A stretch of 64,000 bases of DNA from Candidatus Paceibacter sp. Lineage in GTDB: Bacteria; Patescibacteriota; Minisyncoccia; Phycocordibacterales; BOKC01. Below, piece by piece: positions 1-18,625 of this stretch. The notes beneath the pieces were generated by a model. The model had not been told where the DNA came from. It searched no databases and saw only the letters and a program-made list of their open reading frames with translations. Numbering within the stretch: the first letter of the stretch is position 1; each line of letters starts with the position of its first letter. The translations under genes were made by a program, and so were the position numbers. The DNA lies in the NCBI GenBank assembly GCA_020724885.1, contig DYGD01000002.1:3038-67037 (forward strand). Direction: 5' to 3'.

Positions 1-1135
1 TCCCCGATAAGAACAATTAATTCTCTGTGTCGCCACGGAGGTCGGACTATATCATTACCTCACTTTGAACTGTCGCAAAGAATACACTCTCGCAGGCGCC
101 TCATAAGACTCAATGGGTTGTTTGAGAAGCGCTTGCTTTTCAATAGAGGGCCAGAATTTAGACGTGTGCGTTATTTGCACACCGTCTATAAATCCGACAC
201 ACTCGTGAAATCTGCGTATATCTTTCTCGGTTTCTATTTTTACTTTGCCATCCCTTGTCACATTCCGAGCTGTGATGCCCAAAACGCGCAAAAGTTCGGC
301 ATATTCTTTCCGCAGCTGCGGATGTGCACACGCAAGGTACACGCCGCGAATCACCCATTGGGTACCGCCATTCGTGCCTTTACGTCGCGCAACGTAGAGA
401 TTCACTCCTCCGTCGCAACTGAATGCTGCTTTCAGGAAATCTGACGCAACGTCGTGTTGCAGAAGTTCCTGAATCGGCAGATGAGCATCGGTGTGCTCGC
501 CGTTGCGACGCAAAGTCCGGAATGTCCCGAACCTTTTTGTGAATGCGTCTCTCGCTTCTTTAGAATTGACGATTGCGCGATAAAGTCCGTCGCTGGTTTT
601 GCCAAGACGAACGCGAGACGCCGGCAGTGCGAAACACTGCATCATGCATTCTCGGAATATCGCGACGAGTCGCTCCGATTTATTGCTGAAGTAGAACCGC
701 CAACTGCTTTTGCCTTTCGGTGAAAGACAGCCATCGGTATATAGAAGCCCGATTAATATTGCTGTTGCTTGATTCATTGTGAGGTATTCGGCGTATAGTC
801 TCTGAGGATCCTCTTATATGCTAGATAATGTGGGGAACCGGTGTTCCCCAAAAGGTCAGGTTCGGGGCTGATTGATTTTACAGCTACCCCGCAACGTCGG
901 TGAGGTGATCAACCCCTCACACATGGTCATCCCATAGCGCGATGCCCGCACGCCTTGCCATTTCGCTCTGCAGGAGCTACTTTGACTTTTTTACGAACCC
1001 GACCATTATCTAACACACAAAAGTTTCCTGCTGATTGTCCGCACCTGTAACATTTTCACTAACATAATAATTATATCATGTTTAGTAGTTCAGGATTCTC
1101 GGATGTTCCAGCATATAGCCGAATTTACACTCTGA
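1..1135 (-). mobile_element. Intron-like insertion in 16S rRNA (probably group I) carrying a LAGLIDADG ORF; extends past window start
   Basis: 16S homology ends at ~1136. Downstream sequence is not rRNA-like and contains an HE ORF; 3' boundary not in window. Confidence 0.6.
55..777 (-). CDS. LAGLIDADG homing endonuclease (double-motif), intron-encoded in 16S
   Basis: Motifs LIGLLYTDGCL and LKAAFSCDGGV. GC-rich relative to the surrounding genome. Confidence 0.8.
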   Translation of the reverse strand: MNQATAILIGLLYTDGCLSPKGKSSWRFYFSNKSERLVAIFRECMMQCFALPASRVRLGKTSDGLYRAIVNSKEARDAFTKRFGTFRTLRRNGEHTDAHLPIQELLQHDVASDFLKAAFSCDGGVNLYVARRKGTNGGTQWVIRGVYLACAHPQLRKEYAELLRVLGITARNVTRDGKVKIETEKDIRRFHECVGFIDGVQITHTSKFWPSIEKQALLKQPIESYEAPARVYSLRQFKVR

Positions 1136-2210
1136 TGTCGCCATCAGAGGGGACCAGATGCTTGATCCCGTTCGCTACCCACGCTTTCGTGTCTCAGCGT
1201 CAGGAATGCGCCAGTGTACTGCCTTCGCATTTGGTGTTCCCCTAGATATCAACGGATTTCACCCCTACACCTAGAGTTCCGTACACCTCTCGCACCCTCT
1301 AGTCCTGCCGTTTCTCCCGCGCATCTTCGGTTAAGCCGAAGGATTTTACAGGAGACTAACAGAACCGCCTACACACCCTTTACGCCCAATAATTCCGGAT
1401 AACGCTTGGGGCCTCTGTATTACCGCTACTGCTGGCACAGAGTTAGTAGCCCCTTATTCTTCGGGTACTATCAATAAACTTTCTCCCCGACAAAAGGTTT
1501 TTACGTCCCTAAGGACTTCATCAACCACGCGGCGTCGCTCCGTCAGGCTTTCGCCCATTGCGGAAGATTCTCGACTGCGGCCTCCCGTAGGAGTATGGTC
1601 CGTGTCTCAGTACCATCGGTGGGGGTCAGGCTCTCACCTCCCCTAGCCGTCATCGCCTTGGTAGGCCGTTACCCTACCAACTAGCTGATAGCCCGCAGGC
1701 CGCTCCCATAGCGTTCGAAAACTTTGGTATTGCTACAACATCGGGGATTACCCCGCCTTTCGGCGAGCTATACCCGACTATGGGGTGCGTACCTACGTGT
1801 TACTACCTCGTCTGCCGGTTGCCCGTTACCGGGCCCCCTTGACTTGCATGCCTTATCCACGCCGCCAGCGTTCATCCTGAGCTAGGATCAAACTCTTAAT
1901 GAAAATGTTAGAAATTTCCGAAGGAAATTTATTTACATTTTCTTGACCCGCTTAAGTTTTCACGAAGTGAAAATTTTGGCGGGTAATATGTCCACCAAAC
2001 TTTTTGTTTGCACAAAAACTTAGGCGGACAAGAACGGAACAAAACAAAGGATAACATTACCGCGCTTGCGCGCGGAATTTTTAATTCCCAATTCCTAATT
2101 TCTAAATTTGTTCCTAGCTTTTTTGGAATTTTTTTGACTAAACTTGCACTTATTTTTTGAATACATTCTCTATTTTTTGAACATTTCAAATTGTCAAAGA
2201 ACACATCCGG

Positions 2211-2826: not shown

Positions 2827-3756
2827 CTAGTGGCTAGCTTTCTTCCCCATCACCACCAGAAGCGGGCTGGCCAAGAAAATAGAAGAATAAGTTCCGGCAA
2901 TAACGCCAACCATCAAAACCAGGGCAAAATTCCTGGTTACTTCGCCACCAATAAAATAAAGCATCACTAGAACCAGAAAAGTGGTTAGAGAGGTGTTTAT
3001 GGACCTAACGAATGTCTGACCCAAGCTCCGGCCAACTGTTTCCCCAAAATTCTCTTTTGTATGAAGTTCTTGATTTTTTCTTAAATTTTCCCTAACCCTA
3101 TCAAAAACAATAATCGTATCATTGATAGAATAGCCCAAGATTGCCAAAAGCGCCATAACAAACAAGGCGTCAACTTCAGCGCCAATCAAAAACCCCATGA
3201 CTGCAAATATCCCGACCGGAATTATTATATCGTGAGCCAGAGCCAAAATCGCCACCAGACCGTAAATCCAAGAAGAAACAGGTTTGGAAACCGTTCTAAA
3301 AGAAAACGCGATAAAGAGGATTATAGCGATCAACGACAACCCTATGGCAATCCATGCCTTTTTTTTCAACTCCTCGCCGACAATCGGACCGACAAAGTTA
3401 AATCTCTCCTCAACCGCCTCAAACCTACCACCCAAAGACATCGCTTCAAGCAAAACTTCTTTGCCCTTTTCGTCAATCGGAGGAGTTCTCAGGATAAAAC
3501 TTCCATGATCGGAAGACCTCAAGCTGAATTCTCCGATATTCCGTTCCCTTAAAGCCAACCTCAACTCATCAAAACTCGGTGTCTCGCCAACAAAACTTAC
3601 TTCCAATAAAGACCCGCCTCGGAAATCAATTCCAAAATTAAGCCCAAAGTAGATGACAGAAAAGACAGAGGCCAGAACAGCAATCATCGAAATCAAGAAG
3701 AATATTTTTTTGTATTTTATGACAAACATATTTTTACATCCTAGGCCCGCTACCAA
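2827..3756 (-). CDS. secF: Protein-export membrane protein SecF
   Basis: GIDFRGGSLLEVSF motif, multi-TM, follows secD. Confidence 0.9.
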   Translation of the reverse strand: MVAGLGCKNMFVIKYKKIFFLISMIAVLASVFSVIYFGLNFGIDFRGGSLLEVSFVGETPSFDELRLALRERNIGEFSLRSSDHGSFILRTPPIDEKGKEVLLEAMSLGGRFEAVEERFNFVGPIVGEELKKKAWIAIGLSLIAIILFIAFSFRTVSKPVSSWIYGLVAILALAHDIIIPVGIFAVMGFLIGAEVDALFVMALLAILGYSINDTIIVFDRVRENLRKNQELHTKENFGETVGRSLGQTFVRSINTSLTTFLVLVMLYFIGGEVTRNFALVLMVGVIAGTYSSIFLASPLLVVMGKKASH

Positions 3757-11462: not shown

Positions 11463-11852
11463 TTAATCACCAACACAAAAAACTCAAGATTCCAAGAACA
11501 AAAACAGGCAAAACTTTGATTGCATAAAAGAGAGCAAAACCTTGCGATTTTCAAATTTCCCGATGAGATTGATTTATTAGTACGCCTCGGCTCAACACAT
11601 TACTGTGCTTACACCTGGCGCCTATCAACGTGATCATCTCTCACGAATCTTAATGATTCCTAATCTTGGGGTGGGCTTCCCTCTTAGATGCTTTCAGAGG
11701 TTATCCCTTCCGAACTTAGCTACCCAGCGGTGCTCCTGGCGGAACAGCTGGTAGACCAGAGGTTCGTTCCTCGAGGTCCTCTCGTACTATCGAGAACTCC
11801 CCTCAAGAATCAACGCCTGCAGTAGATAGGAGACCAACCTGTCTCACGCAAA

Positions 11853-12160
11853 AGTAGCTCACTAGGCGCTAGGCTTTGGACCTTAGGATCTAGGAACACC
11901 GCCGTTACCGGCGGGATCGGACGATACACTCGCGGTCAATCCGCGGTTGGTTTGTCGTCTCTACAAGGATTTTACTCCTCTCGGTGTTGTCCTTCTAAGG
12001 ATTCCACCGATAACCCCAACTTGTCACTGAATTAGATTCAGTGCCGCCGTGATTTGATTGGTTTCTATCTCTATTCGTAGACGAAAAGTTCGATTACGTC
12101 GTTATGAGCGGATTCAGACGGTACTTATACCGATACTTGACAAAATCTATTTTTATCAGT
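11853..12160 (-). mobile_element. ORF-less intron-like insertion (~305 nt) in 23S near E. coli site ~2585-2593
   Basis: Exon reads GCTGGGTTCAGACCGT [insert] CGTGAGACAGGTTGG versus contiguous E. coli GCTGGGTTTAGAACGTCGTGAGACAGTTCGG. Confidence 0.6.
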
Positions 12161-12289
12161 ATAACTACGGTCTGAACCCAGCTCGCGTACCTTTTTAATT
12201 GGCGAACAGCCAAACCCTTGGAAGCTTCTCCACCTCCAGGATAAGGTGAGCCGACCACTTTCAATCCCCATGTTGCCATGGGAGCAGAC

Positions 12290-13140
12290 TATACCTTTGC
12301 TTATATCCTAACTATAAGCACCAGCGTGTTATGGCAATGTTTTATCAAATTTAATTGAGGCATTTGCCATCTGTTCACTTAAGAACAAGTCGTTACGGGG
12401 CAATACAACCAATCTTGTATTCCATCGGATGGACGATGTATGGTTTTATAAGATTAATCATTTTGAGAGTTTCGGATTTATTTGCATACATCCGAAATCC
12501 TTTGTCACGATCCTTATGGTGAACCATTTGAATACCAAATTTTTTATAAATAGCATTTTCAAGAATTTTTATTTCCTCTAGCACAAAAGAATAAGTGCTG
12601 ATATCAATAATCCCTTTGTTAAAGGATCCGTCGTCCATAATCCATACTGCCATAGATTGAGGATTGAGATCGACTCCGATATCTTTTGGAATTATTTTCC
12701 TACCAACCCTATATCCATCCCCAACATAAAACCTATTGTAGATTTTTGTTAATAATGGATGTCTCACTGTCCTAAACCACCAAGATTTTCGATATTTACT
12801 TCCATTTTCATCATATCGATAACTTATCTTTGGTTCAGTTAGTACCAGGTCTTTCAATACAGAATACTTATACTCTGTATATTCTTTTTGAGCTAATCCC
12901 TGTTCTATTTTGAAGTTAGCATTTACTGCTCCCTTCCCCATTCTCATTGTTCCATCCCCAAGCAAACAACCCACTAAAAGTGAAAGTTGCTCGTCAGTCA
13001 GAAACATTTTTTCTTTAACGGGAATTAAATCCTTGTGCCAATATTTTGTTGCATAGCTTCCCACGGTGTTGACCATACTATAACGCGAATTATAACATGG
13101 CTTTCTCCGTTATGAGCTGATTTAATGTGCATGAAAAATC
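12290..13140 (-). mobile_element. Intron in 23S (near E. coli ~2500, after GGCACCTCGAT) carrying a LAGLIDADG ORF
   Basis: Exon AACAGGCTGGTTCCGCCTAAGAGTCCATATCGACGGCGGAGTTCGGCACCTCGAT is interrupted and resumes at TCGGCTCACC ~12285. Confidence 0.65.
12393..13076 (-). CDS. LAGLIDADG homing endonuclease (intron-encoded)
   Basis: Motifs LLVGCLLGDGTM and AVWIMDDGSF. Confidence 0.8.
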   Translation of the reverse strand: MVNTVGSYATKYWHKDLIPVKEKMFLTDEQLSLLVGCLLGDGTMRMGKGAVNANFKIEQGLAQKEYTEYKYSVLKDLVLTEPKISYRYDENGSKYRKSWWFRTVRHPLLTKIYNRFYVGDGYRVGRKIIPKDIGVDLNPQSMAVWIMDDGSFNKGIIDISTYSFVLEEIKILENAIYKKFGIQMVHHKDRDKGFRMYANKSETLKMINLIKPYIVHPMEYKIGCIAP

Positions 13141-13289
13141 ATACACACGAGAGAATTGTTCGTATTCTCCCCCTCGACATTCGGTATCTATCGAGGTGCC
13201 GAACTCCGCCGTCGATATGGACTCTTAGGCGGAACCAGCCTGTTCATTGTTTTAGCTGGTGAATAGACTATATCATCACCCCGCCTTGG

Positions 13290-14170
13290 CGGGGGACGGC
13301 GTATTAGTATAAATTCTTGTTCGATAGAAATTTATACTCCATTCACAAAAAGTGAATGAGTCGTTACGGGGTCAAAGAGGTGTTTGATTCTCCTAATTTG
13401 TATTGCATTGAAGGTATAACATATTCTCGAATTAGTTCGTGGAGCTTTTTTGTTTCGTTCACTCCAAAAAATAATGCGTAACCCTTCTCTTTTTTGTCGT
13501 AAATTTTTGGTTTTAGGTCAAAATTTTCGACTATTGCATTTTCTAACAATGAAGACTCTTTTTGGGATACTCTGCCGAGATAAATATAGCTAGATTTATC
13601 TCTCAAGTAGTAGTATCCGTCATCCATATACCAAACCGCCAAAGCCAATGGAGCAGTTAATAATTCGGAAATATTTTTCGGCACTTTCTTTTTGCCATCT
13701 TCGTAGAAAATATTTCTCCATTTGCCGATCTCTGGCGAAGCATTGGACTGCCATCGCCAATATCCGTATTGCTTTCTGGTAATCGGATGAATTCTTTCTA
13801 GATGAGACGGTTTTCCTTGGAAAAGGCGCGGGAATTGACTTCCCTTCCAGATTAAATAATCTTTCTGCTTTTCTCCCTGCTCAAATCTAATTCTCGCGTT
13901 TTGAGAACCAGTTTTTTGCAGAAACGCGTCTCCCAACACAGAACCTATTATTATAGATTCCTGCCTTTTGGTTAATTTCATTGTGTTTACATTTTATCAC
14001 CTCTCGACTTCCCACGGGATTGTGCACTCTAAAACTCTTTTGTAAGAGAGACCTGTGCGTTTCCCCCGTTATAAGCCGTTCTTATTCCTGCTCTTGTGGA
14101 TCAAGAAAACAGGAACGCAAGATTTAATCTCGCTTCTCCGCAGATTACTCTGCGGGAGGACAACAAACGC
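13290..14170 (-). mobile_element. Intron in 23S (near E. coli ~2449, after CCCCGGGGA) carrying a LAGLIDADG ORF
   Basis: Exon ...GGATAAAAGCTACCCCGGGGA at ~14171-14200; exon resumes at AACAGGCTGG ~13250. Confidence 0.65.
13364..13981 (-). CDS. LAGLIDADG homing endonuclease (intron-encoded)
   Basis: Motifs IIIGSVLGDAFL and AVWYMDDGYY. Confidence 0.8.
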   Translation of the reverse strand: MKLTKRQESIIIGSVLGDAFLQKTGSQNARIRFEQGEKQKDYLIWKGSQFPRLFQGKPSHLERIHPITRKQYGYWRWQSNASPEIGKWRNIFYEDGKKKVPKNISELLTAPLALAVWYMDDGYYYLRDKSSYIYLGRVSQKESSLLENAIVENFDLKPKIYDKKEKGYALFFGVNETKKLHELIREYVIPSMQYKLGESNTSLTP

Positions 14171-14363
14171 CTTATTTCAGGCGTCATCCCCGGGGTAGCT
14201 TTTATCCGATAATCTTTGGCCGCATCTAAAGCGCGCCAGCGGTTCACTTAGCCCTGCTTTCGCATCTGCTTGAGACGTACCTCTCACAGTTAAGCCAGCT
14301 TATGCCTATACACTATCGGCACGGTTTCCATTCGCGCCTAGCTGACCTTAATGGACTCCTCCG

Positions 14364-14996
14364 TTACTTTTTAGGCAATGTGTTACCCAATTTATATTTC
14401 ATAGAAGGAAGAATGTGCGGCTTAATAAGTTCCTTGAACTTTTTGGCTGACTGAGATTGTATATACAATCTCCAATACTTCCCTTTTTGCTTATGAAGTG
14501 ATGTTTGAAGATCAAACTTATTCTTTAAGATACTCTGAATGCCTTCTAACTCATCTCTACCGTATCCAAGCGTGTGTATTACATATGTTTGATGTCGAGT
14601 AGATTTGAGCGAACCATCATCCATAAACCAGATCGCCAAGCTTAGAGGAGTAAACAACTTCTCAACCACTGTTGGAATAATTTTCTTACCTTCTTGATAA
14701 AAAATCCTTCCAAAACTTCTGAATGCTTCGTGAGAATATGTTCTCACTCCTACATACACCTTTCCATTTTTAACCTTTGTGTATGGTGTGCTTGGTATCC
14801 ATGATTTTAACTCTCGGTAAAGCCATACCAAATATTCATTTTGAGCACCACAGTGTTCAATCTTCAATCTATATGTCTCACCTTTATCCTGAGTCTCAAG
14901 ATGACCGTCTCCAAGTAAAGTGCCAACGATTATTTCTTGCTGGCGCTTCGTCAAGACTAAGCTCTTCTTGAGTTCGCGGATAGCTTTAGTATTCAT
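14364..14996 (-). CDS. LAGLIDADG homing endonuclease (intron-encoded; stop codon lies ~10 nt inside the downstream 23S exon)
   Basis: Motifs IIVGTLLGDGHL and AIWFMDDGSL. Last codons cct aaa aag taa overlap exon sequence CCUAAAAAGUAACGGAGG. Confidence 0.8.
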   Translation of the reverse strand: MNTKAIRELKKSLVLTKRQQEIIVGTLLGDGHLETQDKGETYRLKIEHCGAQNEYLVWLYRELKSWIPSTPYTKVKNGKVYVGVRTYSHEAFRSFGRIFYQEGKKIIPTVVEKLFTPLSLAIWFMDDGSLKSTRHQTYVIHTLGYGRDELEGIQSILKNKFDLQTSLHKQKGKYWRLYIQSQSAKKFKELIKPHILPSMKYKLGNTLPKK

Positions 14997-15355
14997 CGGG
15001 TTCTTGTTTTCACAAGACTCACTGTCGCCAGTGAGATCGGACTATATCTTCATCCTTAATTATAAAGGATGGTTGGTGTTTAGTCTCTACGGGTGTTTAT
15101 GTGCTGGATAGTGAGGGGGAGCGTTAACTGGTAACGCTCCCCCTAGTGAACCCGCCAACATGGTATTTGCCGTAGCATGGAGGACGGGATCCACTATTCA
15201 ACACACAAACTTCCCTCGGAATTGTCTCTTTACAGAGAGTTTTTCCGATATGACCAACTTTTTCCGCCCCGATTCACATCGGGGGGTCCCCCTAATTTGT
15301 TTTTTTCGGAGTCGGAGTAACTCCATGAGGCGCCTGATTTCAAGACACGAAAAAT
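14376..15355 (-). mobile_element. Intron in 23S (domain V region ~E. coli 2250s) carrying a LAGLIDADG ORF; contains a 13-bp GC hairpin (gggggagcgttaac/gttaacgctcccc)
   Basis: Exon GTGGGGCGCTTTCCTTC at ~15356-15372; exon resumes at CCTAAAAAGTAACGGAGGAG ~14376. Boundaries approximate. Confidence 0.55.
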
Positions 15356-15689
15356 CATGTCCTGAAGGAAAGCGCCCCACTTAAACTGCCCACCAGATAA
15401 TGTCCCTTGCCGTTTTTGCCGACGAGGTTAGAACATATCCTTTCACAGAGTGGTATTTCACTGGCGACTCCATGCCGACCGAAACCGGCACTTCAAAGTC
15501 TCCCACCTATGCTACGCAGTAAAAAAATAAGCTCAATATCAAGTTGCAGTAAAGCTCCCGGGGTCTTTTCGTCTAACTGCAGGTAACCGGCATCTTCACC
15601 GGTATTGTATTTTCACCGAGCAAGTCCCCGAGACAGTTGCCCACTCGTTACGCCATTCGTGCACGTCTCTAATTAAGAGACAAGGAATT

Positions 15690-15900
15690 ACGCTCTTCTA
15701 TCCCTTTAACAGAAGGACCATGTCTTCATCTCTGCTTATTAAGCAGAGCGCACGGCGTATGGCCTCTCATATGAGCCGTGATTGGACTATTCTTGTGTCA
15801 CCACAAGAAAGGTAGCTTTCGCATAATTTATTTGTTTATCTCCATAACGATCCCAGTCCTTCTGATTCCCTTAAAAAGAGAATCAGAACCTTAGGATCGT
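15690..15900 (-). mobile_element. ORF-less intron-like insertion (~215 nt) at the classic 23S site 1917 (after CCUAAGGU)
   Basis: Exon GTCGGTCGTAACTATAACGATCCTAAGGT [insert] AGAAGAGCGTAATTCCTTGTC versus contiguous E. coli sequence. Confidence 0.6.
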
Positions 15901-16077
15901 TATAGTTACGACCGACATTCACCAGGGCTTATAACAATCACCAATACATCTTGCGACATATCAACGTCGTTACTTGACCTTCTGGCATTGGTCAGGCGTC
16001 ACCCCCTATACATCCTCTTGCGAGTTCGCAGGGAGCTGTGTTTTTGATAAACAGTCGGCAGGCATACTTTAGCTGCG

Positions 16078-16221
16078 GCCCCCGACACCAACTTTGGCAT
16101 CGTTGCATTGTGTGTTTTCGTAATTTTTGTCGCAATACTTCAGATTTTAAGTAAGAAATTATTACTTACTTTAATCTTTGGAGTTGCAACAAAAACACAA
16201 TGCCAAAGTTGGCGTCGGGGG
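16078..16221 (-). ncRNA. ~145-nt stem-loop insertion / intervening sequence in 23S (variable helix near E. coli ~1720-1750) closed by a 22-bp stem
   Basis: cccccgacaccaactttggcat ... atgccaaagttggcgtcggggg inverted repeat (one G-U); the closing stem and ~40 nt of loop are similar to the element at 18655..18797. Confidence 0.55.
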
Positions 16222-17501
16222 CAGGCCTTATTGCGAACTTACGGCCGCTTTTTTGCCGAGTTCCTTGGGGACCTCTCACTCGTTCGCCTTGGTCTTCTCG
16301 ACCTGACTACCTGTGTCGGTTTTGCGGTACGGTTTGAATCTGCTTAACCTTAGAAGTTTTTCTTGGAAGCGCGCTTTACAAAATTTGATCACCCGAAGGT
16401 TCACATTTTCGTTCTGCTTGGGTTTGTGCCTCCCGGATTTTCCTGGGAAACGCCCTCACAGCGCGAACATAAATCCAATAATATGCTTTGTATACTGCAC
16501 TCCGTCCCTCCATCGAAACAAATTCAAGTCACGGAATATTAACCGTGTGTCCATCACCTTCGGCTTTCGCCATCGGCTTAGGCCCGACTAACCCTTCCCT
16601 GATTATCATCGGGAAGGAAACCTTAGTCTTTCGGCGTCCCGGTTTCTCACCGGGATTGCGGTTACTTGTGCCAACATTCTTACTTCCACACGCTCCAGCA
16701 TGGGTTACCCCTTTGCCTTCAACGCAGAGTGGAATACTCTCCTACCACATGTCAATGCGAAGCACTGACACATCCTCAGTTTCGGTATCATGCTTGAGCC
16801 CCGATTATCTTTGGCGCAAAATCTCTGAATAAGTGAGCTGTTACGCTTTCTTTAAAGGATGGCTGCTTCTAAGCCAACCTCCTTATTGTCAGAGAAATCT
16901 TACAACCTTACGCGCACTTAGCATGAATTTAGGGACCTTAACTAGAGATCTGGGCTGTTTCCCTTTTGACCAATGGAGCTTAGCCCCCACAGTCTAACTG
17001 CCAGATTCTGGCTGCGAGTATTCGGAGTTTGATAGGTTTGACGAGGTTTCCCCCTATTCAAACCTTCCAGTGCTCTACCCCCCGCAGAAACATCTGACGC
17101 TAACCCTAAAGCTATTTCGGAGAGAACCAGCTATTACCAAGTTCGATTAGCTTTTCACTGCTTACCACAAGTCATCCGATGGAGTCGCACGACCAACCGG
17201 TTCGGGCCTCCGCACGCCTTTCGGCGCACTTCACCCTGCTCATGGCAAGATCACTTGGCTTCGGGTCTCATGTATACGACTATTATTTCGCGCTTTTAAC
17301 ACTCGGTTTCCCTGTGGCTCCACCCAGTCAAGGGCTTAGCCAGCCGCATACATAAACTCGTTGGCTCATTCTTCAATAGGCACGCCGTGATGGCTCCCCG
17401 CTTTTGAGTTGTAGAAAACTCTACTTCCCAAAAGTGGGGAGCCACTCCGACTCCTTGTAGGCATATGGTTTCAGGTCTATTTCACCGCCCTCACCGGGCT
17501 G

Positions 17502-17541
<40 letters not shown>

Positions 17542-18625
17542 TCTAACGATATTTAGCCTTACCGGTTAGTTCCGGCAGATTCACCCGAGCTATTGATGTC
17601 TCGAGTTACTCAAGAATAGCAACCAAGGAGTTTTTCTTGTTTTCGCCTACAGGGCTATCACCTCCTGGGGCTTCTCTTTCCAGAGAATTCGGCTAACAAA
17701 AAAATATTTTTTACTCCTCTGGCTAGGCCGTGTTGCTATCTTACAACCCCCCTCCCCAGTTTTGAATTATGGAAATTTCCATATCTCAAAACTGGGGAGG
17801 GGTTTGGGCTCTTTCCTTTTCGCTCGCCGCTACTAAGAAAATTCCTATTGGTCTCTTTTCCTCCGGGTACTGAAATGTTTTACTTCCCCGGGTTTGCATC
17901 TCGAACTGGTCGAGATTTCCGCCAAAAGCGGAAGGGTTTCCCCATTCGGACATCTCCGGATCAAAGGTTGCTAGGCACCTCCCCGAAGCATATCGCCGCC
18001 AAGCCGCGTCCTTCATCGCTCGTTAGAACCTAGGCATCCACCATACGCCCTTGAATTCCCATCAGGAAATTCAAAAACCGCTGTCAATGCGAAGCATTGA
18101 CCGCGGACACACGCAGACAGGACGCAGAAATACGCAGAAATCTAACTCGAAACCACATGGCTACGAATCAAGATTCTGCGACCTTCTGCGTTCGTTCTGC
18201 GATATTCTGCGGTCAGTGCTTCGCACTGACATTTTTGCTCTCTTTTATACAATCAATCTGCGCAAAGCGCAGATTTGCCTGTCCCGAAACCCTATCTTCC
18301 GAAAGAATTCCGGGATAATCTGTCTACAACAAATAAAGACCCCTCGACTACGCTCGGAGTAAACTCCTTAGTAATCAAAAGTTTTGTTGTGACAGGATTT
18401 TGTCTGCGATATCGGGCTATGCCCAACTCGCGGAACTTTTGTCAAACAACATTCCTTCATCCATTCTGGCTCTATCTTCCGGCCAAATTTCTGTTGTTTA
18501 ACAGAAATTTGGCCGAGAGACAAAAAAACCGCCTTTTAAGCGGATTTGACTATCACATAACGATAAAATCACCGTCTCCGCTTGAGTTTTGATATTAAAA
18601 AATTTATTAACATAACTTTATTCTA

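Follow-up and report, generated by a model that had tools for sequence, protein, structure and literature searches.

The 16S rRNA gene at the edge of this stretch of DNA raises two questions, namely what kind of element breaks the gene in the universally conserved 790 loop, and whether that element is a recent arrival. The window (the whole stretch of DNA analysed, 64,000 nucleotides) carries the gene on the minus strand, as it does all features located below. A break near position 790 had been claimed in a preliminary description made from the letters alone. This is borne out, and the insert is a group I intron placed exactly after U788 (E. coli numbering), with a P1/P10 guide, a covarying core and a terminal G.

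Exon 1 of the gene (E. coli positions ~1-788) occupies 1165..1903, and the bacterial SSU model of Rfam (RF00177, 683 bits for the whole match) aligns to it without a break up to the GGGAU junction. This model (SSU_rRNA_bacteria) begins at 1903, while the 5' end at 1898 given in the preliminary description is the start of the archaeal model. The 3' end of the exon, ..GCGAACGGGAU, lies at window position 1165 and is equivalent to U788. The homology had been described as running on to ~1136, an overshoot of 29 nt that arose because the guide sequence of the intron, AUCUGGUCCCC, loosely resembles the next stretch of 16S rRNA and was forced into the alignment. No part of 1..1164 aligns to 16S rRNA with the Rfam SSU models; thus, the ~1.1 kb after the exon is non-rRNA, as had been proposed, and no 16S model runs gap-free through 1136-780.

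The 3' exon, for which an extension of the contig had been recommended, lies outside the window and was found in two public contigs (L001 and L002) that are 100 % identical to the window and reach past its edge. The extension past the window was reached through a cluster member, P0121. In both, the intron closes with ..AAAAUUG, followed by UAGAUACCCCGGUAGUCC, which places its end 41 nt past window position 1. Exon 2 begins with UAGAUACCCC, equivalent to position 789, and matches the bacterial SSU model from that position on. The archaeal SSU model outscores the bacterial one on the full gene; since each exon alone is matched best by the bacterial model, the higher score is an artefact of bridging the intron. 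Open reading frames on the plus strand of 1-1898 were also considered as genes, and were set aside as lying antisense to the rRNA or to the intron ORF and as being without support.

The 16S rRNA gene of this ultra-small CPR/Patescibacteria bacterium is, then, confirmed to be broken in the 790 loop by a group I intron of the self-splicing type that carries a homing-endonuclease gene. With a probability of roughly 90 %, the locus represents a mobile group I intron at S788 (E. coli 788/789, in the '790 loop' of helix 24), lodged in the only 16S rRNA gene seen here, in a host of the Parcubacteria type, which would be spliced in two steps and would home by means of the endonuclease encoded in its P8 loop. 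The part of the intron inside the window is 1..1164, out of a full length of 1,205 nt. The Rfam family Intron_gpI (RF00028) matches window 1174..23 over model positions 1-253, at 51.1 bits, narrowly above its gathering score of 50.

The guide sequence pairs with both exons. P1 (1150..1169), read from the sequence, pairs exon GGGAU (1169-1165) with intron GUCCC (1154-1150), so that U788 forms the U·G wobble at the 5' splice site; the remainder of the guide lies in the P1 loop. Across 23 homologues, 91 % of the P1 cells are paired, and the U·G at the splice site is kept in 22 of the 23. The adjoining guide segment GCAUCUG (1155..1161) pairs with the start of exon 2, UAGAUAC, to give a P10 of 5-7 bp in which 90.6 % of cells are paired. 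Directly before the 3' splice site stands the terminal G (..AAAAUUG|UAGAUAC in L001 and L002).

Next to P1 is the P2 hairpin (1130..1149), formed by CUCUGAUG and CAUCAGAG and closed by a GCGA (GNRA) tetraloop, with compensatory changes in all eight of its pairs. P3 (786..1124) pairs AUUCGGC (1124-1118) with GCCGAAU (792-786) and encloses the P4-P6 domain; five of its seven pairs show compensatory changes and 97.5 % of cells are paired. Within this domain (1030..1112), P4 (1112-1108 with 1034-1030) and P5 (1103-1100 with 1041-1038) are both 100 % paired with compensatory changes, and an extension of P5 (1099-1042), read from the alignment, holds the A-rich segment GUGAAAAUG. P6 (805..1029), as paired in the family alignment, joins AGGA (1029-1026) to UCCU (808-805) and carries a branched extension of ~200 nt (1025-809) that is absent from most relatives; this extension folds at -99 kcal/mol, with z = -6.4 against shuffles.

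The 5' strand of P7, GACUA (796..800), pairs with UAGUC (45..49), which lies inside the conserved J8/7-P7 stretch AAUGAUAUAGUCC; both strands agree with the Rfam core and the family alignment. P7 is pairable in 23 of 23 sequences and invariant, and therefore contributes no covariation support. P8 (57..785) pairs ACCUCAC (785-779) with GUGAGGU (63-57), with compensatory changes in six of seven pairs, and the endonuclease ORF forms its loop. Translation would start at an AUG 2 nt past the 5' strand of P8, and the 3' strand of P8 is made of the last codons of the ORF and the first base of its stop codon. The P9 hairpin (23..40; CUCCGUG and CACAGAG around a GCGA tetraloop) has compensatory changes in six of seven pairs and is 99.4 % paired across the family, although this copy has one C·A mismatch. 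The peripheral P9.1/P9.2 region, as traced on L001 (positions 1176-1238) and in the alignment of the 3' parts, starts at 1..22; beyond the window edge follow its remainder, the conserved UAACA motif and the terminal G. The fold as read from sequence establishes that the intron RNA would be able to form a complete group I architecture, comprising P1, P10, P2-P9, the P3/P7 pseudoknot, GNRA loops L2 and L9, and the terminal G. The absence of P7.1/P7.2, the A-rich segment in the P5 extension, the GNRA loops L2 and L9, and the presence of P9.1/P9.2 are peripheral features that give a first lead towards an IC-like subgroup.

Homologous introns recur at the same site. Among 24 GTDB-representative genomes that encode a homologue of the endonuclease, 23 have it in an insertion at exactly ..GGAU|..G|UAGA.., as does contig L029, giving a recurrence of S788 at 24 loci. 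The homologous introns that at least 23 other, diverse CPR genomes carry at this very site maintain the fold through compensatory substitutions. Across the 59 pairs of the trimmed cores, 94.6 % of cells are paired, compared with 34-40 % when the partners are slid by 1-3 columns; 31 of the 59 pairs have changed on both sides, and none of 500 shuffles reaches the observed values. Compensatory changes occur in each of P3, P4, P5, P6 and P8, where 92-100 % of cells are paired. The contacts to the exons follow changes in the exons themselves: P1 does so in L023, where exon CAGAU faces GUCUG, and P10 in L024, L026 and L027, where exon UAGAG faces CUCUA/G in the intron (A-U replaced by C-G). The 5' part of the intron varies from 180 to 500 nt over the family. 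As a result of these comparisons, the S788 intron family now has a clean secondary structure supported by covariation.

Judged by its 16S rRNA, the host is a CPR/Patescibacteria bacterium, a placement deduced solely from the 16S relatives. The best of these are 80-84 % identical and belong to MAGs named Kaiser-, Zambryski- and Vogelbacteria and Paceibacterota. The 16S 3' end is without the anti-SD motif, which is likewise missing from the 16S 3' end in a Parcubacteria subgroup (PMC9297842). The same 16S gene has, outside the window, a second insertion of ~566 nt at position 1398/1399, which has no ORF and contains a group II-like domain V. An Rfam search of the region past exon 2 assigned neither group II nor any other family to this second insertion; its hairpin resembling domain V was identified by visual inspection together with covariation in four relatives. 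The neighbouring 23S rRNA gene has at least four introns.

The intron ORF (55..777), which had been described as a 240-aa LAGLIDADG frame with two motifs, holds up in every respect examined. It contains LIGLLYTDG and AAFSCDGG and belongs to LAGLIDADG_3: the Pfam profile PF14528 matches it in two stretches with E 1.4e-11 and 44.9 bits, where the cut-off is 22.5. A search gave 168 homologues. In an alignment of the protein with 30 homologues (31 sequences in all), the putative catalytic residues, D15 and D122, do not vary. In the AlphaFold model (pLDDT 92, pTM 0.90), the helices 3-15 and 111-122 each end at one of these Asp residues and are followed by beta hairpins, in a pseudo-dimer of alpha-beta-beta-alpha-beta-beta-alpha domains. 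Foldseek aligns the model over its full length with E-DreI, I-Tsp061I, I-AniI, I-OnuI and the bI3 maturase (E 1e-8 to 1e-7, TM 0.5-0.65). A search of the PDB with the single sequence gave no match at E <= 1, and a profile search gave one marginal match, to the I-DmoI half of E-DreI (E 0.025). The model looks like a monomeric single-chain enzyme with two LAGLIDADG_3 domains. It shares with I-DmoI/E-DreI, I-Tsp061I, I-AniI, I-OnuI and the bI3 maturase a pseudo-dimeric two-domain fold, acidic ends of the LAGLIDADG helices and an intron-encoded origin, but is only 8-17 % identical to the solved single-chain LAGLIDADG structures and its 240 aa make it more compact than enzymes of the I-OnuI class. 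The public annotation (NCBI) gives the protein 196 aa, without the first motif; this shorter version was rejected on conservation grounds only.

The ORF is under purifying selection, with dN/dS of 0.12-0.19 against five relatives, and is intact at all 25 loci inspected, as it is in over 160 homologues from the databases. The protein has therefore probably kept an activity, be it that of a nuclease, that of a splicing helper (maturase), or both. There is no Shine-Dalgarno-like sequence upstream of the AUG, and the pairing of P8 would compete with the initiation of translation. In the usual homing cycle, an endonuclease gene is expected to decay once the intron is fixed. It is tempting to speculate that the gene is kept beyond continued homing because the host needs a maturase for its sole 16S rRNA gene. 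The leads in this direction are the intact ORFs, the low dN/dS over deep divergences, and the presence of the bifunctional I-AniI and the bI3 maturase among the structural neighbours; as an explanation of the conservation it is nevertheless improbable.

Given its architecture, the intron would be removed from the pre-rRNA by the standard two-step transesterification initiated by guanosine, which would join U788 to U789 and restore the universal sequence GGAUUAGAUACCC. Such splicing has to be efficient, given the essential function of the 790 loop. The C·A mismatch in P9 and the unusual insertion of ~200 nt in P6 are to be kept in mind with regard to the unaided self-splicing of this copy. The endonuclease, for its part, may cut intron-less 16S rDNA (target GCGAACGGGAU/UAGAUACCCCGG) across 788/789, and repair from an intron-bearing copy would then insert the intron. 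Homing of this kind would explain the patchy and site-specific spread over CPR lineages. Empty sites do exist: nine contigs in JGI metagenomes carry an uninterrupted, identical junction of 62 nt, in 16S genes that are 79-82 % identical to this one and thus as distant from it as the intron-bearing ones.

Would an insert of another kind account for the locus equally well? Intervening sequences that are excised by RNase III without ligation, leaving a fragmented rRNA, are common in bacterial 23S rRNA, and some CPR insertions fit neither intron class (PMC11270868). Archaeal introns of the bulge-helix-bulge type also occur in rRNA and also carry LAGLIDADG genes, for example, that of I-Tsp061I, one of the structural matches. 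In either case the insert would not be self-splicing. However, the group I core of the insert is complete and covaries, P1, P10, the U·G at the splice site and the terminal G are all present, and the long terminal stem needed to bracket an RNase III substrate is absent, as the ends pair with the exons through the internal guide sequence. Breaks in the 790 loop are not known to be tolerated. No bulge-helix-bulge is formed at the exon-intron junctions, where the P1/P10 guide pairing and the group I core are found instead. An insert of either type is therefore very improbable, and the group I intron is the reading retained here.

The chances are slimmer still that the 16S gene is a decaying pseudogene or an assembly chimera, in which case the group I intron would be without consequence. 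Such a state might be suspected in a gene that has two insertions and is unlinked from the 23S-5S genes; one relative, L013, lacks part of exon 1. Unlinked and intron-rich rRNA genes are, however, the norm in CPR (PMC11270868). The SSU model is matched by each of the three exons across conserved regions, with high posterior probability, and no second 16S gene is present in the 64 kb window and its 2.7 kb extension. The sequence is the same base for base in five independent assemblies; it is 100 % identical over 1.2-10.6 kb in four independent Logan assemblies (SRR5011273, SRR5011275, SRR6488413 and SRR6488455), which rules out an assembly artefact for the window sequence.

The second question, that of a recent arrival, goes back to the preliminary description, which took an ORF GC content clearly above the host background to suggest recent horizontal acquisition of the homing endonuclease. 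The ORF is indeed richer in GC (0.492) than the non-rRNA part of the window (0.426) and 40 long host ORFs (0.435 +/- 0.049), but 'clearly' overstates the difference: z is 1.17 (0.65 for GC3), and four of the 40 host ORFs are equally rich or richer. Its codon-usage distance is surpassed by 8.8 % of length-matched pieces of host genes and is no outlier. By codon position, the GC content in the ORF and the host is 0.548 and 0.504 at position 1, 0.432 and 0.361 at position 2, and 0.498 and 0.439 at position 3; as the excess is largest at position 2, amino-acid composition accounts for much of it. GC content thus does not establish a recent horizontal acquisition, and the earlier interpretation as a whole is partly supported.

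There are, nonetheless, some indications of a recent gain, from a donor richer in GC, of the intron or, at the least, of the endonuclease gene. At the 23 loci with enough flanking DNA, the GC of the ORF follows that of the flanks (r 0.79), with a mean offset of -0.032 (sd 0.043); the offset of this copy, +0.064, is the largest positive one of the 23. Hosts with ~46-49 % GC, whose 16S exons are only ~80 % identical to this one, harbour the nearest endonucleases (86 % and 78 % amino-acid identity). Within the clade of at least 80 % 16S identity, endonuclease identity appears decoupled from 16S identity (rho -0.39, n = 12, not significant). The nearest relatives in hosts so distant and of higher GC make lateral transfer of the intron or endonuclease family likely, and the discord between endonuclease and 16S identity is a better indication of such spread than is the GC of the ORF. 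Against a new acquisition, besides a GC content and codon usage within the host range, stands the divergence of the nearest sampled endonuclease, which amounts to 14 % of the protein (dS ~0.5), so that none of the sampled relatives qualifies as a recent donor. The search for a close relative lacking the intron was likewise negative: the exact spliced junction of 82 nt, as it would read in an empty allele of this species or a sister species, had no match in the JGI metagenomes. The nine empty sites are silent on recency, since they occur only in 16S genes of 79-82 % identity. A recent transfer into this host is possible, and an acquisition from a GC-richer donor is on this evidence doubtful, though the least unlikely of the alternatives weighed here.

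How does the intron compare with known ones? Group I introns with LAGLIDADG genes in the 16S rRNA of CPR/Patescibacteria were reportedly described by Brown et al. in 2015. Insertions in CPR 16S genes are often group I introns with LAGLIDADG genes, with LAGLIDADG_3 confined to the 16S, and several of the group I sites were formerly unreported in bacteria (Tsurumaki 2024, PMC11270868). The intron described here agrees with these in host group, conserved 16S region, Rfam group I call, LAGLIDADG_3 type and patchy, site-specific distribution, without any essential difference; a second, group II-like insertion near 1400 in the same 16S gene is a further shared trait. We infer that S788 is the site named '16IS5' in Tsurumaki 2024. 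A CPR enzyme of the LAGLIDADG_1 type, I-ShaI, cuts its own insertion site in vitro (PMC11270868). The CPR LAGLIDADG proteins of that study are mostly single-domain, LAGLIDADG_3 having an N-terminal 'non-domain' region, whereas the N-terminal region of the present protein has the first LAGLIDADG motif and is modelled as part of a two-domain monomer. Given that group I introns with LAGLIDADG_3 genes have been published for CPR 16S rRNA (Tsurumaki 2024), there is little new in this one, an unremarkable representative of a class that was known from CPR before.

More distant parallels exist. The intron Mcr.S788 of Mucilago crustacea (IC1) is also a group I intron at the identical site after U788, but in the nuclear SSU rDNA of a eukaryote; the available text of the report mentions no endonuclease gene, and the likeness is one of site and class (PMC8395846). 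The 16S rRNA of giant sulfur bacteria, as summarised in PMC11270868 from Salman et al. 2012, contains introns of group I (and group II) whose splicing was shown by experiment, some of them with LAGLIDADG genes; their hosts are Gammaproteobacteria, unlike the CPR host here.

Some practical consequences follow. Introns of the S788 type lie inside the 785F/806R primer region, and amplicons that span it would be ~1.2 kb longer, which is one reason why amplicon surveys can overlook CPR bacteria or record them with a wrong length. Automatic gene calling also goes wrong here, the 196-aa call without the first catalytic motif being a case in point. Compact two-domain LAGLIDADG_3 monomers with a predicted recognition of universally conserved 16S rDNA may be of interest for enzyme engineering. 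Current understanding is unchanged by these results. The locus is a further example of the tolerance of CPR rRNA genes to mobile introns, with two in this 16S gene alone, and if the endonuclease were indeed kept as a maturase, ribosome production in these bacteria would hang on an intron-encoded protein.

The 16S rRNA gene lies on the minus strand, where the match to the bacterial SSU rRNA model begins at window position 1903. The alignment is continuous, with high posterior probability, through ..GAAAGCGUGGGUAGCGAACGGGAU, the last base of which is window position 1165. This U is E. coli position 788, with GGAUUAGAUACCC representing positions 785-797 (the 785F/806R primer site). The sequence that follows (CAAGCAUCUGGUCCCCUCUGAUGG..) is non-16S. 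The cmscan match extends down to 1137, with a few extra columns of low identity; these are spurious, since the guide sequence of the intron resembles the next stretch of 16S. Alignment of the guide sequence as 16S also explains the break at about 1136 in the preliminary description: the interruption is real, as the model match does stop, while the true exon end is at 1165. On two Logan contigs (L001 and L002), the intron continues for 41 nt beyond window position 1, giving a full length of 1,205 nt. It ends in ..UUAACAAAAUUG, and exon 2 (UAGAUACCCCGGUAGUCCACGCC), which the preliminary description had left to be sought by extending the contig, follows directly after the terminal G. Exon 2 by itself matches the bacterial SSU model from the junction onward (534.7 bits), and exon joining regenerates the universal GGAUUAGAUACCC. 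The insertion is therefore between positions 788 and 789, with a U preceding it and a G as its last base, as is usual for group I introns. Positions 788 and 789 belong to the 790 loop, part of helix 24 at the subunit interface.

For the interrupted gene as a whole, the archaeal SSU model scored higher (761 bits, L002 7100-9693) than the bacterial one, whereas the single exons favour the bacterial model; the archaeal lead looks like an effect of the way the two models span the intron. The exact endonuclease protein is encoded on L001, a contig of 1,268 nt, and three further contigs (L002-L004) were reached through a protein that clusters with the public 196-aa gene call. Each of the four contigs agrees with the window at 100 % identity, over lengths of 1.2-10.6 kb, and the arrangement is thus not an assembly accident.

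The Rfam group I intron model matches the minus strand at 1174..23 with 51.1 bits (gathering score 50), and the match was obtained in each of three scans. Its alignment carries insertions of 47 nt in the P5 loop, 200 nt in P6 and 700 nt in the P8 loop. Because the score is marginal, the fold was tested comparatively. Databases hold 168 homologues of the endonuclease, and a scan of GTDB, with a single genome for each species, located 24 endonuclease loci, with hosts that are all CPR/Patescibacteria MAGs (including Doudna-, Kaiser-, Vogel-, Zambryski-, Uhr- and Daviesbacteria, Microgenomates and Paceibacterota). The same junction, with an upstream exon ending in GGAU, an intron ending in G and a downstream exon beginning with UAGA, is shared by 23 of the 24 loci and a metagenome contig (L029), where it surrounds an ORF-bearing insertion of 960-1,310 nt. 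The exception, a Vogelbacteria MAG (L013), has the S788 intron and lacks part of the upstream exon. At about 3150-3300 of this locus, ~100 nt of 16S (roughly 690-788) are absent, including the exon strand of P1, so that the gene is either damaged or mis-assembled.

For alignment, 23 introns were reduced to their cores, leaving out the ORF as well as the extensions of P5 and P6, which are variable; a structure written from the window sequence was projected onto the aligned cores. Standard pairs occupy 94.6 % of cells (59 pairs in 23 cores), compared with 34-40 % when the 3' partners are slid by 1-3 columns. Changes on both sides occur in 31 pairs and in 189 cells, and neither value is reached in any of 500 shuffles. 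On the minus strand of the window, compensatory changes affect 8 of 8 pairs in P2 (1149-1130, with a GCGA tetraloop), 5 of 7 in P3 (1124-1118 with 792-786), 6 of 7 in P8 (785-779 with 63-57) and 6 of 7 in P9 (40-23, also with a GCGA tetraloop); P9.1 and P9.2 lie 3' of P9 and extend beyond the window edge. P4 (1112-1108 with 1034-1030), P5 (1103-1100 with 1041-1038) and P6 (1029-1026 with 808-805) are paired in 100 %, 100 % and 97.8 % of cases, and in each of these three helices one pair or more is altered on both sides. The P5 extension has an A-rich segment. P7 (800-796 with 49-45) is invariant across the cores and carries no weight for or against the fold. The helices that involve the exons follow changes in these exons. 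P1 joins exon GGGAU (1169-1165) to intron GUCCC (1154-1150), and in L023 an exon reading CAGAU is matched by the guide GUCUG. Similarly, the P10 guide (1161-1155) pairs with exon 2, and UAGAG in exon 2 of L024, L026 and L027 is matched by the guide CUCUA/G. GNRA tetraloops cap P2 and P9 in the whole S788 family. On this comparative evidence, the identification of the S788 insertion as a group I intron is regarded as secure. The intron with a LAGLIDADG gene that had been proposed near position 790 of the 16S is thereby borne out by the model match, the covarying fold and the Pfam assignment of its product.

Three features are particular to the window copy. The first is a branched P6 extension of ~200 nt, which folds much more stably than shuffled sequence (-99 kcal/mol, z = -6.4) and is absent from most relatives; the 5' part of the intron is 387 nt long in this copy, within a family range of 180 to 500 nt. 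The second is one C·A mismatch in P9. Third, the ORF (777..55) fills the entire P8 loop: its AUG is 2 nt past the P8 5' strand, and the P8 3' strand consists of the last codons and the first base of the stop codon. This placement suggests that P8 formation would compete with translation initiation.

The 240-aa ORF corresponds to the 700-nt P8 insertion of the Rfam alignment and matches Pfam LAGLIDADG_3 in two stretches (E 1.4e-11). In an alignment of the window protein with 30 homologues, 34 columns are invariant, including D15-G16, which closes motif 1 (LIGLLYTDG), and D122-G123-G124, which closes motif 2 (AAFSCDGG). An AlphaFold2 model built from this alignment (pLDDT 92, pTM 0.90) places an Asp at the end of each of two helices (3-15 and 111-122), followed by beta hairpins. 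A sequence search of the PDB gave essentially no match, and Foldseek returned LAGLIDADG proteins only, with full-length alignments; the top matches are E-DreI, bI3 maturase, I-Tsp061I, I-AniI and I-OnuI (E 1e-8 to 1e-7, TM 0.5-0.65, identity 8-17 %). The invariant motifs, the model and the fold matches thus indicate a compact single-chain, two-domain enzyme. The public gene call (P0005, 196 aa, on a 71,225-nt NCBI contig) begins at Met45 and misses motif 1, and several relatives' proteins are likewise called at about 196-200 aa. Residues 1-44 are conserved, which favours the 240-aa form. Against five relatives, dN/dS is 0.12-0.19, and the endonuclease is therefore under purifying selection.

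The preliminary description had taken the GC content of the ORF to be clearly higher than that of the host, and hence a sign of recent acquisition. The ORF has a GC content of 0.492, the rest of the intron 0.46-0.47, 16S exon 1 0.547, the window without rRNA 0.426 and 40 long host ORFs 0.435 ± 0.049. This gives the ORF a z of 1.17 overall and 0.65 for third codon positions; its GC content is equalled or exceeded in 4 of these host ORFs. The excess is greatest at codon position 2 (0.432 vs 0.361) and smaller at positions 1 (0.548 vs 0.504) and 3 (0.498 vs 0.439). The synonymous codon-usage distance from the host pool (0.139) is unexceptional compared with 0.116 ± 0.023 for 240-codon host pieces, 8.8 % of which lie at this distance or beyond. 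The composition of the ORF alone is no evidence for recent import.

Comparison across loci keeps the idea of a recent import open. In 23 loci with enough flanking DNA, ORF GC follows flank GC (r = 0.79, p = 6e-6), with a mean that is 3 points lower; the window copy is 6.4 points above its flank, the greatest positive offset. The nearest endonucleases (L029, 86 %; L005, 78 %) belong to loci with 16S exons only about 80 % identical to those of the window, whereas hosts with 84 % identical 16S have endonucleases of 64-72 % identity. Endonuclease and 16S identity correlate over all 25 loci (rho = 0.67) and are uncorrelated in the clade with at least 80 % 16S identity (rho = -0.39, n = 12). Empty sites with an identical 62-nt target exist in equally distant relatives. 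No close relative of the window organism, intron-bearing or intron-less, came to light; an exact search of JGI metagenomes with the 82-nt spliced junction gave no match. Taken together, the GC offset, the identity mismatch and the empty sites indicate that the intron has long resided in CPR and has repeatedly moved laterally, in line with an earlier proposal (PMC11270868); they do not date its arrival in this host.

The S788 intron is one of several insertions in the rRNA genes of this organism. A second 16S insertion of about 566 nt (L002 9679-10244, about 680-1,250 nt past window position 1) separates E. coli positions 1398 and 1399, between ..CUUGUACUCA and CCGCCCGUCA; the interrupted gene spans ~3.3 kb and the mature 16S ~1.5 kb. 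The second insertion has no ORF and no Rfam match. A hairpin resembling domain V (CGCGUAGUGCGG-GAAA-UCCGCUCGCUACGUG) occupies its 3' part and shows covariation in L005, L018, L019 and L027; the insertion fits the group II-like class of CPR insertions described at "position 1400". The usual GUGYG 5' end is absent at the apparent boundary, with AUGCG 7 nt inside. In L029 (1-5298), one 16S gene has three endonuclease-bearing insertions (LAGLIDADG_2, LAGLIDADG_3 and LAGLIDADG_1). The equivalent of exon-1 position 467/468, empty in the window's gene, is occupied by an insertion in many relatives. The 23S gene (18050..11569, minus strand, 6.5 kb) matches in at least five pieces and contains three LAGLIDADG_2 ORFs (12393-13076, 13364-13981 and 14364-14996) and an ORF-less group I intron match (15018-15367, 71.7 bits).

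Linkage between the rRNA genes is absent and their order is unusual: on the minus strand 23S-5S comes first, and 16S lies ~9.4 kb downstream, beyond genes for VWA-domain, FtsW-type, glycosyltransferase, epimerase and SecD/SecF proteins. A near-consensus sigma-70-like site (TTGACA-16-TATACT; 2337-2310, minus strand), ~400 nt upstream of the 16S, may be its own promoter. Over the 64 kb of the window ARAGORN found no tRNA genes; three are located shortly beyond its edge (L002 11333-11609), 1.6 kb from the 16S 3' end. The 16S 3' tail, ..GUGGAAUAUUUCAAG (L002 10326-10380, outside the window), is without the CCUCC anti-Shine-Dalgarno motif, which is equally missing in relatives with 79-84 % 16S identity (tails of L008, L015 and L030-L038), whereas more distant CPR retain GGAUCACCUCCUUUCU. 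A GGAG/GAGG/AGGA motif precedes only 5 of 40 long host ORFs. Absence of the anti-Shine-Dalgarno has been reported before, for a Parcubacteria subgroup (PMC9297842).

CPR rRNA genes are rich in insertions: 48 % of the 16S genes carry them, Rfam assigns 35 % of those in 16S to group I, LAGLIDADG_3 is confined to 16S, and one CPR enzyme has been demonstrated to cleave its own site (PMC11270868). The S788 intron is one more member of this class; eukaryotic nuclear SSU rDNA is likewise known to carry group I introns at S788 (PMC8395846). Three small additions are made here: a structure of the S788 family that is written out explicitly and tested by covariation; the finding that the family's LAGLIDADG_3 proteins look like two-domain monomers, rather than proteins of one domain whose N-terminus is unassigned; and a corrected public gene call (240 aa, not 196 aa).

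The data demonstrate the fold, the splice-site geometry, an intact nuclease fold and fidelity to the site across genomes. By the established group I mechanism, guanosine would attack after U788, and the freed exon would then attack past the terminal G to give ligated 16S. The protein, acting like other LAGLIDADG enzymes, would cut both strands of intron-less 16S rDNA at the junction, and repair of the break would copy the intron into the empty site. No 16S other than the interrupted gene was seen on the stretch; unspliced rRNA would therefore be useless, and efficient splicing must be under selection.
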